Below, piece by piece: positions 1 to 48,000 of a stretch of 64,000 bases of DNA. The notes under the pieces are model-generated. The model did no database searches and had not been told where the DNA came from. It saw only the letters and a program-made list of their open reading frames with translations. Source of the DNA: Balanoglossus misakiensis (lineage: Eukaryota; Animalia; Hemichordata); contig CM082581.2 of the NCBI GenBank assembly GCA_040954595.2, positions 5,200,699 to 5,264,698 of the forward strand, read 5' to 3'. Made by a program: the position numbers and the translations under genes. The first letter of the stretch is position 1, and the number at the start of each line of letters is the position of its first letter.

Positions 1-3000
1 GCATTCATTGGGGGTGTCAGTTGACCAGATCCAAGGGCTTTAGAAGGTTGTGTTTTTCCTTGGGCATCTAAACTTTTGGCATTGAGACCTGATTTGATCC
101 TCTTGGGCTTAACACTATCTTCTGTTACAGATACTTGCTTCGTTCTAGACTTACTGCTCTTATTATCTTTACCCTGATCTTCTTTGTTTACAGACAATTC
201 CTTGTCATCATTACTTGTTTTATTGTCCCTAACATTGGGCTTGTTTTCTATCATGTCTTTGGCTTGATGTTGAACATTTCTCTCTAATTCAGACGGATCT
301 CTGCTTTTATTTTGAGATACAGGATTATCTCTTCCTTGCCCTAACCTGTCAGATGGTGTTATATCATTATCACCGGGAATTATTTCCCAACTATCAATGC
401 CATCTTCATTCTGTTCAACTTCACCTCTTCTTTCTGAAACTCTCTTTTGTTTTTCAATCTTCCTGGCGAGTAACTCTCTATCTTCTTCTTTTCTGTTGGG
501 TGCAAAAGATCCTGTAGGTGGGGTCTTTATCTTTAGATGCAAAGAAGCAGTGTTGATATTACTTGTAGATGGGCCAGCTTTAGGTTTAGATGATGGAGTT
601 TTATCTAATGGGGTTTTAGTTGAATTTTTATCATCATAAGTATTAACTTGGGCCCCAACCTTTGCGCTTTTCTTGACAGTCTCAGTCATCTTAATACTAA
701 ATGTACCTCCTTGTTGCATTTTCCTATCTTTAGCAATATCCTCATCTGTCTCAGCTTGATTTAGACTACTGTGTCTGTCTTGCTCTCTAATTTCCCCATG
801 TTTACTTTTGCCATTTTGGTGTTGTTCCTGATTCTCATTTGCCACTACAGAACAAGCTCCCAGCGATACCACTTGCTCTACAATATTTCCATTACTCTCT
901 GTACCATTTTGCCCATCATTTCTAACACTTGCATTTCTTTCGTTAAATTCATCTGCTGCTTTGAAAGACTTGAATTCAGATTCTAACTTAACAACTTGTG
1001 TGATGGGTCTACAAACTACATCTACAATTTGATTGGACCTATCATTTACATGGTCTCTCTCATGATGAGAATTATGATTATCCTGTAAATCACCAGAATC
1101 GGTTGCCATGATACTTTCTACACTGGGTGTCTGTAGGGATAATTGTATTTTATCGTGAAATTTGATGATATTAGACAGGTTTCCCTTGATGAGAACTTTT
1201 GTGCCATCTTTAACATGACATGTAGTCTCAGCATCTCTGGCAGATTGTTGTACCAATGACAAAGCTTTCTTTTGGGGCAAAGACAAATTTTGGAGATCAA
1301 ATGTAGCAACCACTTGCTCAAAAATCTGTGAGCCCTGCAAAGGAATGAAACAATGACAAATATAATTTAACTATCAACACTTAAGCCACCGAACACTCAG
1401 AGTGACATTGCAGGTGATTGTGACATGCCCAAACTTGATCAACAAACATGATCAGCCATTATTAACCTACATTTAAAACAACATTGATGCACATAACAAT
1501 ATCATGATACTTTGTTTACTATCCTCAGGTATCCTCAAGTGTGAACAAAATCAGTTCAGGTAAATCTACCCATAGTAATCTTACTTGACATGAATCACCT
1601 GGTGGCCAAACCAAAATATTACTTTCACTGCCATATTTTTCAACAAAACAGTCTCTATCAATAAGTTAATACATTGTAAGAGAACCCTGAGATAACATTA
1701 AGAAGTCACTCATCAGGAGACTAAACTATCAGTTTAGTCTCCTTATGAGCGAGTTCAGTAACTCACGAAACAACATTGCAGAGATAATACCGCCTATCGT
1801 TTCTCCAACTACCCTTATTCTGCTCTACTTAAGTATCGAGCACTTTGTATCATACCAGTTGAACTACATACTTCATACATACATGCATGCATACATATAT
1901 GTACATACATATATGACATGCATGAATGAGTGAACAAATGAATGAATGAATAAATGAATGAATGAATAATATCAATATCCTCACCACATTTGCTCCCAAA
2001 TATCCAAGATCCATCAGTGGGCATGCAGGATTTTCTGTGAAAACCAAGTCACTGTCATCATGATTATCAGAATATTGTACTTCTTGTGAATCATGCTGTT
2101 GCAGTCGTTGCTCCATTTCTGTCTTGGCTGTCATGATATCCACAGGTCCACCAAAGGTCAAAAGGTGATTCAGATACGACTGCATACTCTCTGCACTGAC
2201 AAGTTTGTGTTCCAAGAGTTCTATCTGAGAATCAATCTGTTTACGCTTTGGTGCATAAATATCACTGACTTCAGCCTGTAACTCTAATTCTTGTTGCTTG
2301 AGTTTATCAAAGACACTTTTAGCAAAGTCCTTGATTTGTGACTCAGCCGTCGTTTTCATTTTTTCCAAATCAACTCCATCACTTGAAACTCTATCCTTCG
2401 TCTGTTTTAAATCAATCACTTTTTGCTCGACTGTCTTGGTGTACTGTTTCATAGTTGGCATGTACTTCTCCAGCGCAGACTCTATTGATATTGTTTTATG
2501 CTCTGGCGGTACATGGTGAACAATACTACACTTCATACATGTTGGCAACTGACAAGTGTCGCAGTAGAATTCTAACTGAGTGCTAGGATGACTCTCACAG
2601 AATCGTGGTTGGATCATTCTGAAATGCTGTGAAGACATTTTCTCATTATATTCTTCAACTGTCATGACTTTATGATCTTTTAATGACCTCACAACTCTGT
2701 GAGTTCGAATGCACTCATCACAAAAGAACTGACCACAGTCTGTACACCAGTGTTTAGCTTCACTGTCACATCCTTCACAGACAGATTGTTCAGCTTCAGG
2801 ACTGATGTCGCTGATAAGCTGAAGTAGGTCATTCATGAAGCGATTGTTGGTGATGGCTTTTACTCCTCCAGAGGGCAAAGGATGCAGTTCTCTACATGTT
2901 GGACAGATCAGCTGACCATTGTTTTCATTAACCCACTCCGTCAGGCAAACTTCACAATATGTGTGATAACAAGGCAATATTTTAGGTGATTTAAAACGCT

Positions 3001-3085
3001 CCAAGCAGATTGCACATAGCATTATTTGTTCATTGATATCAGTTAAAACTTTGTCACTCGAACCAGGTGTTGCAGCTGTTGCCAT
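1..3085 (-). CDS. Gene A (partial, runs off the window): TRIM(RBCC) exon spliced to a long exon with a KH-like module and low-complexity linker; probably a fifth Deltex-like paralog
   Basis: TRIM exon 3085-1985 (GTG|GTGAGG donor, phase 0). The acceptor TTTGCAG opens an exon at 1334 that stays open to base 1: GSQIFEQVVATFDLQNLSLPQKK...VKDGTKVLIKGNLSNIIKF, homologous to the VF.SVVAT..KDG..VIKG exon of genes B, C and E. It is missing from the ORF track because no stop lies in the window. Confidence 0.75.
1985..3085 (-). CDS. TRIM RBCC exon of gene A (RING, B-box1, B-box2, coiled coil; TRIM56/TRIM45/TRIM2-3-like)
   Basis: [88 protein letters not shown]; then a helical coiled coil. Confidence 0.9.
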
Positions 3086-45085: not shown

Positions 45086-48000
45086 GTTGGATCCACTGAT
45101 TACAAACGTTTCGCCTGCAAAACATAATATTTTCAGTAAATTACTAAGTGGAAGAATTCATGGTAGATAATTTTAATGGCCGTACCAGTCTATTTTATTA
45201 TTGGCTATTTTATCCCAATTACCTGTATTTGGTTTTCAAGTATCGTGGTATGTGCAAAAAACAACCCAGGGTGAGGAGCATTTTTCATATAACTACATGT
45301 ATATCAGCATGTTTGTTTGGCGAAGAAACTCAAACTTCGACGAGTAGACTAAATTTCTAATGGTGGAAATAACTTTCGTCCAATCACAATGCTCGTAATT
45401 ACTGGCCAATGAGAGCCACATTTACAATTTCTTCAGCGGCGGAAATGGGGGCAGACTGGCTCTCGTTGTGATGTGCGTTTCGTGTTGGACCAAAAAAAAA
45501 ATCAATGAGGCCGACCGTCCTCAAGGCAATGTTTTCTTCATAAGTACAAATTATTCATTGCATAGATAGACACATGCGTTTGTTGTTGCTGCACCCACTG
45601 ACGTAGCTGTACTTGCACGATAAGTTTTGTGATTATTCTTTTGCAAGAACATGCGGCTACGTCTGTTGCTAATGATAATGCTAGTCTGTTTTCTGGATGC
45701 ACGCGAAAGATCCCCAAAATATTTCAAAGACTATCCGCCTCCTCTACGGTTGTAAACAAGCGCCCGTGAAACTAAACGGTGACGGTTACAGTAGAAGTTT
45801 ACATACATGTATGCTCGCCAGCTTGAGACTACGTGCACGGTACGCGACCAGCACTAAAGTGAAACTTTGTTCATACGTTTTTTTCATCGGATATCGAATA
45901 TTGCAGTTTTTCACGACAGTTTACAATTCACCGAGGTTGACTAAATTGACGTCAATCTTATGACGAAACTCACCTTCAATGTCATGCGATGGGAACCACA
46001 CTAAACACAGTCATTTATAGCAGAGAGTCGGGCGAAATGTGACATTAGGTAAAGGCGAGCATGCGCAATCAAGTTAATGAATTTTGCTTGGGCTTTTGCT
46101 TTCACTTTGTTTGAAATGAGCAGGTCAAACAGCCTTGCAAATTTGTGTCAATGGAAAAGTACAGAGCGACTCATTGATATGACAAACCTCCTTAAAATAC
46201 ATTACCAATTACGTGCCAGGCTCCTAGTAGAGCAGCTGGTGTTTGCGTTTGATATCGATTTATAGTATGAGGTCAAAACAGTGTCACACACTCTGACACA
46301 ATCACACAATGGAGTACAATGATGTATGTTTTTCATGGGGGGGGGGGGGTCGAGAGATCTTCATACTATTATACATATATTTAAAAAAACAAGGCCTGTG
46401 ACAGGAGTCAGCTGGATCGATATTGATTCAGGACAGGTTCCTATCTTGACTGTCGCCAATAAATTGTCCGAATAAATTCACATGCCAGCTAGTACTGATT
46501 AGTTTTGGCCACACTACATACACTAACACAGATAGAACGTTTGAGTGGCCAGCTTTTTATCTGCAAATCAAACTGAAATGTTCTTGAAATATATAGTTTT
46601 TAATAGTAGGCCCATTCTATCAGTGAAATTTGCGATGACACGAAGAAATAAATCATTGTAATTGATATTGCATCGATCATCTGTTAGATAGCAAACATTT
46701 TTTTCTGTTCTCGTATTAGGAGTGGGCTGTAGTGTATCAGATGTATTCTGTGTGTACATAACTTCGTACTGTCACACATTGCAGTATGCCAGAGGTCTAT
46801 AAACTCCCCCCACCCCCACAAACTTGATTTTTGACTGTTTTGTTGGGTGTCTGTGCTGTGCTGTGCTATATTGTTTGACTTTACTGCTGGCCATGTGACT
46901 GTCATATCTGACCTGATGATATATAGATGGTACTGTAGTATATAAATGTGTACTCCAGAGTTAAATATAATCAATGTTTTTTATTCACATCGCATAAATT
47001 GATGACAGGAAATTTGGAAAAAAGTTGATCACACCATCTTTTGTTGAATTCGACCATATCAGTAAATAAAATCTTCAAAGACTACTACCGGTATATCATT
47101 TAAGGTAGCAGGGACTACCCAGTAAAAAAAAACATATTTGCAATATTGTCATTTTCTTTAAATTTTCACAAAACGTATTGAAAGAGAAGTTCTATCCAGT
47201 GATATAAAGTAAACACCATGCTTGATTTTGTGATTTCTACTATAGAGAGTTATAGCCCCGGGAGTCCAAGAAAAATGCTGAATCCGCATTTCACTCGTCT
47301 TTTGATCCCTGTTTTATATTTTTTTAAAGTTAAAATCCATTGGTTACAAGATATATATTTTCATTTGAATAAAATCCTGGCAACTTTTCTGAAAAGTTTT
47401 ATTTGGTGGTACAAAGATTTTGCAGTGGACAGACTTGTACGCACACATGCATGCATGCACGCACTTACTCAAATACACACATACTGGTATAAAAATTAAT
47501 TTTATGCTATACCAGTACATACAAATGCCAAATGGGAGCTAAAATTCTTGAATAGTAGAAATATTGAACTAAACTGCAAAACAAACAACAATATTCAGAT
47601 GTGACTATGTTTTGACTTGTACAGAATGAATAATAGGCACATGATTAAATAATGGGAAATTATATGAATATGCCTGACAAGTTGTTTATTTTCTGCAAAT
47701 TGGGAATTAATATCTAATTTTTGTTTGCATTGCACTGACTGAAATTCCCAGTTACATTGTGCTACAGATGGGCAATTAATGCACAAACCTGTTAATAGAT
47801 TTGCATACTGTTTCATAGAGTTTCTGAACATCACGGCCAGGCACATGCTGAGTTCAGGTAGGCATTTGTATTACAAAACTGCTGGCTACTATCTGGGGGA
47901 TATATAATTATATTCTTTAGACAGCTATTAAACTATTCCTTGAACATCTTTCCAATCAACAGCATCAGCAAATGTGGCACTGAATCCCTGGATCACCAGG

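Follow-up and report, generated by a model that had tools for sequence, protein, structure and literature searches.

TRIM-headed Deltex genes in a tandem array of the acorn worm Balanoglossus misakiensis: predicted two-RING chains with database relatives from corals to fish

The five-gene array and its domains

We analyse here a stretch of 64,000 nucleotides from the hemichordate Balanoglossus misakiensis (GenBank assembly GCA_040954595.2, contig CM082581.2, positions 5,200,699 to 5,264,698), hereafter the window, in which a series of genes appears to join a TRIM head to a Deltex-type body. On the whole, the window has 37% GC and contains five tandem genes, A to E, all on the minus strand (Table 1). 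The exon models follow splice sites read from the sequence, and the spliced products were joined by coordinates. GT-AG is found at every modelled junction of the five genes, and the junctions leading from TRIM exon to body, 43970>43741 in gene D, 28524>27590 in C, 14225>13998 in B and 1985>1334 in A, are all canonical and of phase 0, in agreement with the first-pass annotation, which had described four TRIM exons with phase-0 GT donors. The stop-free frame that it described, broken by a single shift in gene C, is also recovered: no stop lies between the TRIM ATG and the Deltex stop of genes D (1645 residues) and B (2001 residues), gene C gives 1528 residues after one frame correction at an 11-A run (25152-25162), and gene A is open for 811 residues up to the window edge, its Macro/RING/DTC region lying beyond the window. 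Gene E, with a product of 1856 residues, had been described as the same body under an RRM-like head, and so it is: two RRM exons stand where A to D have the TRIM exon, and tblastn within the window places RRM exons in gene E only. The architecture of gene E is likely the parental form of A to D. Allelic or assembly duplication of the genes is ruled out, the bodies being only 39-64% identical.

The N-termini of A to D show RING, B-box 1, B-box 2 and coiled coil (RBCC) in the order of TRIM proteins. Pfam detects RING and B-box in 4 of 4 head exons, all C3HC4 zinc ligands of the N-terminal RING are intact in the alignment, and the predicted structure of a homologue (P0014) has a long helix at 198-308. 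The RING is the best-conserved part of the head, with 0-7 differences per 100 nucleotides across the first 200. The four RBCC exons are indeed shared, but the earlier description of them as near-identical goes too far, since their identity at the protein level is just 83-93%. Among TRIM/RBCC ligases the window heads are nearest to TRIM2/3 RING structures and to acorn-worm TRIM-NHL and "TRIM56-like" proteins, whereas their C-terminal part differs in being a second ligase module and not a passive binding domain. TRIM classes usually end in PRY/SPRY, NHL, filamin, FN3, PHD-bromo, MATH or ARF domains; no C-terminal domain of the listed classes is found in the bodies, where Pfam reports Macro, RING and DTC only. 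Eleven such classes, C-I to C-XI, are given in the sections of PMC9732051 consulted.

Behind the heads, a C-terminal RING followed by DTC, as in Deltex/DTX3L proteins, is present in B, C, D and E. Macro is detected by Pfam in C, D and E only, so that the macrodomain once ascribed to the family bodies is confirmed in these three, while gene B lacks it and has two Deltex-type RINGs instead. KH-pair units of about 140 residues each number three in B and E, two in C and one in D; gene D is thus without two of three such units, and is also without the first small-domain exon (N1). Pfam, even with the E cutoff relaxed to 1, reports no KH family for these exons, and the KH assignment comes from profiles and fold search: of 131 proteins retrieved, 84 match the KH-pair profile, mammalian DTX3L among them (at about 240-355), the profile aligns to DTX3L 250-370 with an hhalign probability of 96.5%, and the predicted structure of the gene E KH segment, with a mean predicted local distance difference test score (pLDDT) of 84, matches KH domains at Z 8-9. 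For the small domains N1 and N2, set against the alpha/beta (D2) oligomerisation domain of DTX3L, the P0014 model shows a beta-alpha-beta-beta-alpha order and hhalign gives a probability of 1.6%.

The macrodomain of C, D and E is nearest, by sequence and by fold, to macrodomain 1 of PARP14 and PARP9. It keeps the N-A-x-N motif, the G-G-V loop and the aromatic residue after G-T-G-I, and in gene C it has a one-residue insertion after the glycine loop. Resembling PARP14 macrodomain 1, the D macrodomain would bind and probably erase ADP-ribose; the PARP14 and PARP9 domains are of hydrolase type, according to excerpts of PMC10499325. In the DTC, alignment to DTX3L (3PG6, numbered from its C-terminus at residue 740, a length that agrees with the orthologues) finds equivalents of the catalytic His707 and Glu733 and of the pocket residue Tyr719 in C, D and E. 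Gene B does not keep them: it has Asn at His707, Gln at Glu733 and Phe at 719, with the macrodomain deleted in frame and the Deltex-type RING duplicated. Of 91 DTC sites that do not vary among C, D and E, seven are changed in gene B, two of them being the catalytic pair (chance about 0.005, calculated post hoc).

As a whole the bodies resemble DTX3L (BBAP) and its macrodomain-bearing invertebrate orthologues in the KH-like units and, for C, D and E, in a RING-DTC with all three residues. They differ in that A to D have the TRIM RBCC in place of the N-terminal RRM, giving two or three RINGs per chain, and in that gene B has neither Macro nor the two catalytic residues. Gene E is an ordinary member of the DTX3L family; a macrodomain within early DTX3L represents the state before PARP9, according to the main text of bioRxiv 10.64898/2026.04.23.720386.

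Table 1. Exons and upstream elements of genes A to E (positions within the window)
Feature	Positions	Strand	Details
Gene D upstream block	45974..46020	-	TATA-like box; first exon, presumably non-coding, with GTGAGT donor
Gene D TRIM exon	43970..45114	-	ATG 45085; RING-Bbox1-Bbox2-coiled coil; 372 residues; phase-0 donor
Gene D linker exons	42930..43741	-	Three duplicated phase 0-0 exons: 43741-43595, 43407-43264, 43073-42930
Gene D large exon	39913..42277	-	Domain N2 (small, alpha/beta), spacer of low complexity, a single KH-pair unit, beginning of macrodomain
Gene D RING exon	38013..38752	-	Macro end, Deltex RING, DTC start
Gene D last two DTC exons	35307..36312	-	36312-36101, 35376-35307; H707/Y719/E733 equivalents intact
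Gene C TRIM exon	28524..29639	-	372 residues; 93% identity to D
Gene C N1 and large exons	24692..27590	-	27590-27291 (N1), 26835-24692 (N2, two KH-pair units, Macro); frameshift 25152-25162
Gene C Macro end/RING/DTC exons	21514..23997	-	23997-23258, 22588-22371, 21583-21514; catalytic residues intact
Gene B TRIM exon	14225..15325	-	367 residues; most divergent head, chiefly RING end and B-box 1
Gene B linker and N1 exons	12146..13998	-	Linkers 13998-13852, 13660-13517, 12885-12739; N1 exon 12400-12146 (starts ATG)
Gene B large exon	7733..11662	-	N2, three KH-pair units; Macro and intron deleted near 8800; Deltex RINGs at 8476 and 7987
Gene B last DTC exons	6813..7375	-	Asn for His707 (codon 7192), Gln for Glu733 (codon 6839)
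Gene A TRIM exon	1985..3085	-	367 residues
Gene A body exon	1..1334	-	N1 domain, low-complexity spacer, runs off window edge
Gene E	49169..60239	-	RRM-headed, DTX3L-like: RRM, linkers, N1, N2, three KH-pair units, Macro, RING, DTC; ATG 60220
Sites upstream of gene E	61661..61744		NF-kB-like and CRE sites, two of each (consensus match)

Besides the exons, the window has some smaller features. An acceptor at 13330 in gene B, belonging to a fourth linker exon, opens into a long (ATGT)n microsatellite (12990-13325), apparently a destroyed exon; gene D also has similar repeats, as does intron 1 of C. The gene C spacer contains a 41-codon internal tandem duplication (26171-26468) with copies 94% identical. 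The upstream block of gene D has counterparts before C (30587), A (4069) and B (about 16460, with an altered TATA), each of the four TRIM genes having its own. The first introns of these four genes each contain an IRF-like element, AAGTGAAA (3906, 16297, 30423 and 45857), which is also present upstream of A and D.

Head and body probably in one chain

Genes A to D very probably encode fused TRIM-Deltex single proteins, and we infer the splicing of head to body from the sequence and from homologues. Such single polypeptides, proposed in the first-pass annotation, are well supported by the open frames, by purifying selection and by fused RefSeq models of Ptychodera flava and Glandiceps. Among 4043 AGs, the acceptors of the four junctions score at the 98.9-99.9th percentile, and the donors of B and D reach the 95th in a model built on 25 local donors; the best-scoring alternative donors that keep the frame are also of phase 0 in 4 of 4 TRIM genes. 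The ratio of nonsynonymous to synonymous substitution (dN/dS) is 0.21-0.38 in the heads, 0.25-0.33 in RING-DTC and 0.21-0.32 in Macro, with every bootstrap interval below 1. Purifying selection thus acts on all modules. The motifs AATAAA and ATTAAA are absent from the four first introns, but AATAAA is absent after the B, C and D stops too, which makes the poly(A) test uninformative.

Five of the 16 longer relatives of head D have B-box and DTC in one RefSeq protein, the top three being from P. flava with 63-64% identity. The RefSeq models of P. flava and Glandiceps talaboti join the same head family to RING-DTC, and five P. flava/Glandiceps models resemble A and C in having N1 as the next domain after the RBCC.

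Relatives, probable repeated origins and exchanged heads

B-box is present in 16 of the best 120 (of 490) RING-DTC matches. A set of 268 database proteins, made of RING-DTC matches and a representative search and therefore biased towards query-like sequences, has 26 members from at least 12 species with B-box/coiled coil ahead of DTC; P0213, in which DTC precedes the B-box, is not counted. The carriers are acorn worms (P. flava, Glandiceps), lancelets (Branchiostoma), octocorals (Dendronephthya, Paramuricea), molluscs (Haliotis, Saccostrea, Potamilus), tarpons (Megalops) and a sardine (Sardina). The full order RBCC-Macro-RING-DTC is found in three of them, Branchiostoma floridae, Dendronephthya gigantea and Haliotis rufescens. 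All these proteins are gene predictions with automatic names. Like the window proteins, XP_070540329-331 (P. flava), XP_035673944 (B. floridae), XP_028398975 (D. gigantea) and XP_048249660 (H. rufescens) run from RBCC to RING-DTC; the window proteins differ in being much longer (1528-2001 residues, with up to three KH-pair units), none of the retrieved acorn-worm TRIM-DTC models has a Macro, unlike window genes C and D, and the heads in other phyla derive from other TRIM lineages.

Literature searches, with most subscription papers outside their reach, found no published description of a TRIM-Deltex fusion. "TRIM" and "B-box" have 0 matches in the main text of the DTX3L evolution preprint (bioRxiv 10.64898/2026.04.23.720386), "Deltex" and "DTX" have 0 in the available text of the 2012 TRIM diversity survey (PMC3503706), and the sections consulted of a PARP14 perspective mention no fusion. 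The first-pass annotation did not know the architecture as a described TRIM class, allowed for database precedents, and would have been refuted by an architecture already widespread and characterised. No description or characterisation was found in these searches, yet there are database precedents in at least 12 species. Both halves are already known; their join is widespread among database proteins and seems to be convergent.

Some neighbouring proteins should also be recorded. Members of the same acorn-worm RBCC head family precede two other kinds of tail, WWE-PARP catalytic and OGFr_N, in P0138 (Glandiceps XP_077991496) and P0012/P0133 (P. flava), so that TRIM heads recur on several ADP-ribose-related modules. 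About 18 unnamed proteins (e.g. P0139, P0147, P0151 and P0169) have two DTC per chain and no canonical adjacent RING, with nearly all catalytic residues altered. In B. floridae, LOC118414188 (P0058/P0079) places a TRIM-headed and an RRM-headed Macro-Deltex under one RefSeq locus, their bodies being alike without being identical, a pairing as in D and E. Alternative heads on one body, as the isoforms X1/X3 of this species could suggest, are ruled out: the bodies differ in sequence and look like two tandem paralogues.

The fusion appears from the trees to have arisen repeatedly, from corals to fish. In the RING-DTC (tail) tree of 32 rows picked from the matches, TRIM-headed tails adjoin TRIM-less tails of their own lineage: an RRM-headed paralogue is the partner of the XP_035673944 tail of B. 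floridae (100/100), and the pattern recurs in two further tails from lancelets, two from octocorals and two from fish. A single clade of TRIM-headed tails is rejected (p-AU 3e-102), which together with this placement points to repeated fusion; we infer at least five origins. The TRIM-head label changes 11 times on the tail tree, eight of these changes being forced by starred branches, and this is no fewer than with shuffled labels. A possible alternative is a single old fusion whose two ends were later converted lineage by lineage; fish heads of other TRIM types speak against it. The head tree has 50 rows, is unrooted, brings several long branches together and samples few TRIMs without DTC outside the acorn worms; in it a PRY/SPRY TRIM is the sister of the tarpon head (99/97). 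For the acorn worms, the P. flava TRIM-DTC tails group with B, D and E (93/86) and their heads are sister to the window heads (99/97), both sets of heads lying inside an acorn-worm group that also bears NHL, OGFr and WWE-PARP tails. Before the lineage parted from that of P. flava, a one-exon phase-0 RBCC head would have taken the place of both RRM exons in an E-like gene.

As judged from the alignments, heads have been exchanged among the tandem copies, presumably by later conversion or unequal crossing-over. Between C and D the synonymous divergence (dS) is 0.09 in the head, against 1.1-1.4 in the tail. The head exon has 29 informative sites. Throughout the last 14 the pairs are A-C and B-D, while the earlier ones mostly set A and B against C and D (runs test p 0.006). 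A block running from the last DTC exon through intergenic DNA into the next TRIM exon is shared between 1936-6927 and both 43915-47033 and 32689-35421, a layout as expected from unequal crossing-over. Gene B has a patch at about 15025-15125 (RING end and B-box 1), where alignment columns 201-400 show 21-29 differences per 100 nucleotides between B and the other three heads; in the same columns A, C and D differ mutually by just 1-6, and the rest of the exon is homogenised.

What a chain with two kinds of RING may do

For the products of A to D, we favour, with a probability of roughly 55%, single dimeric two-RING ligases in which the Deltex tail recognises and primes a substrate and the TRIM RING extends the chain. 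Dimerisation by the coiled coil would activate the N-terminal RING, as in TRIM biology, where coiled coils dimerise and RING dimers activate ubiquitin-charged E2 (E2~Ub; parts of PMC9732051). The tail of D, and of C if intact, would prime ADP-ribosylated proteins or nucleic-acid ends with ubiquitin, as in Deltex biology: the DTC binds ADP-ribose and single-stranded DNA or RNA at one site and ubiquitin is transferred to them (excerpts of PMC11460948). The TRIM RING would then lengthen the ubiquitin chain on the tail-primed substrate, and the D macrodomain, a probable eraser as well as binder of ADP-ribose, would select or edit. A precedent is the human relay in which DTX2/DTX3L makes ADP-ribosyl-ubiquitin (ADPr-Ub) by its RING-DTC and a second RING, in RNF114/138/166, extends it (PMC13061329, in the portions covered). 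It differs in that the relay partners are separate proteins and the elongator carries ZnF-UIM readers, whereas the window genes are predicted to have both RINGs in one chain. Two ligases joined to an ADP-ribose reader or eraser, as first claimed, fit gene D, and C if its frameshift is an assembly error, but not B, which has no Macro and a changed catalytic pair. According to passages of PMC11460948, H707A abolishes and E733A impairs nucleic-acid ubiquitylation by DTX3L; with an Asn/Gln pocket, the gene B tail would be binding-only, as reader or decoy, with its output through the TRIM RING.

Altered tails are also frequent among the relatives. His707 or Glu733 is altered in 9 of 19 TRIM-headed against 8 of 111 other DTC domains, in 15 of 28 against 52 of 255 in a wider set, and in 11 of 24 against 17 of 203 where a canonical RING is adjacent. 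Among the 28 DTC proteins with a TRIM head, four have lost the Deltex RING but keep the DTC, a proportion that does not exceed the one among other DTC proteins (36 of 239), and in these four the DTC can serve only the TRIM RING. TRIM-DTCs that have no Deltex RING and altered catalytic residues are P0140, P0141, P0145 and P0168, from acorn worms, lancelet and freshwater mussel.

Several observations weigh against this priming and elongation. The excess of catalytic changes ignores kinship, four acorn-worm rows sharing one Arg. Elongators of the RNF114 type have dedicated ADPr-Ub reader modules, by the published portions covered, and none, including UIM, is identified in the window proteins. The gap between head and tail is 1100-1450 residues with low-complexity spacers, so that coupling is not structurally implied. 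An immune setting is suggested by the DTX3L-PARP9/14 axis and by the turnover of the array. Among regulatory motifs, the IRF-like counts are within chance window-wide (3 against 0.8 expected, with 7 of 100 shuffles as high, and 11 against 6.9, with 14 of 100), as are the NF-kB-like ones (5 overlapping matches at two sites against 2.0, 6 of 100). The cAMP-response element (CRE) occurs 5 times against 0.7 expected (0 of 100 shuffles), a count inflated by duplicated promoters. For NF-kB and CRE, consensus patterns were used.

The long spacers would also suit a real fusion whose head is a scaffold for dimerisation or localisation, replacing the RRM and the N-terminal oligomerisation of DTX3L, with the RINGs independent and the TRIM RING perhaps serving only self-ubiquitylation and turnover. 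This is unlikely, though the best placed of the alternatives. The first KH-like domain of DTX3L is proposed as oligomerisation driver (PMC11460948, in part), and TRIM coiled coils homodimerise, many TRIM roles being ligase-independent (PMC9732051, likewise in part). A scaffold, however, does not account for a head whose RING is its most conserved part with all zinc ligands kept, nor for the DTC retained in TRIM fusions without Deltex RING or catalytic residues, which requires a DTC function routed through the head.

The single chain itself could be questioned if TRIM exons and Deltex bodies were separate transcription units, one RBCC-only and the other a head-less Deltex from the N1 exon, and the fused models were artefacts; we hold this improbable. 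The earlier statement that the bodies have no start or RRM exon of their own is right for the RRM, absent from A to D by tblastn, but the gene B N1 exon (12400) begins with ATG, and C has a Met just ahead of N1. The donors of A and C reach only the 80th and 75th percentile in the small model of 25 local donors, and gene C is frameshifted as assembled. In P. flava the most E-like body (P0277) is modelled head-less, starting at N1, RBCC-only models exist (P0132, P0149), and the database fusion P0027 is probably a merger of neighbouring genes; by P0277 and P0132, head-less and tail-less forms may exist. Against separate units, read-through past the four donors gives mutually unrelated tails of 9, 34, 44 and 114 residues, partly microsatellite, only 226-228 nucleotides separate the head from ATG-less linker exons in B and D, and several of the 26 database proteins with the join have multiple isoforms. 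It is just as doubtful that the chimeras are transient by-products of birth and death in the array, chance in-frame landings of a mobile one-exon head that then decay with no special function. Every window copy does have a lesion or deletion (the frameshift in C, deletions in B and D), and NHL, OGFr and WWE-PARP tails are found behind heads of this family too, but dN/dS is far below 1 in all modules, the deletions are in frame and remove whole domains, the fusions are common to three acorn-worm species, and two of the seven changes at otherwise invariant DTC sites of gene B hit the catalytic pair.

For the TRIM family, fused TRIM-Deltex proteins would add a C-terminal class missing from the TRIM surveys examined, in the parts covered. 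Tentatively, and with less confidence than in the two-RING ligase, we propose that they may form an unrecognised TRIM class which evolved convergently in octocorals, molluscs, acorn worms, teleosts and, repeatedly, lancelets, on five occasions or more in all, with primer and elongator hard-wired in one dimer and the Deltex pocket repeatedly turned from enzyme into a pure ADP-ribose or RNA-end sensor, in the role that PRY/SPRY has in antiviral TRIMs of vertebrates; the RBCC would then be a plug-in for ADP-ribose immunity, by way of the acorn-worm PARP and OGFr tails. The array also shows a domesticated form of head swapping between tandem copies (C and D). That Deltex ligases ubiquitylate ADP-ribose and nucleic acids is a recent addition to ubiquitin chemistry, with downstream effects that are a subject of current work, and natural fusions point to the partner that evolution repeatedly pairs with Deltex, a dimeric TRIM RING. 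One genome offers here a series of RRM-headed parent (E), full fusion (D) and Macro-less, catalytically altered fusion (B), which lets the primer-elongator and reader-only models be tested by single mutants.

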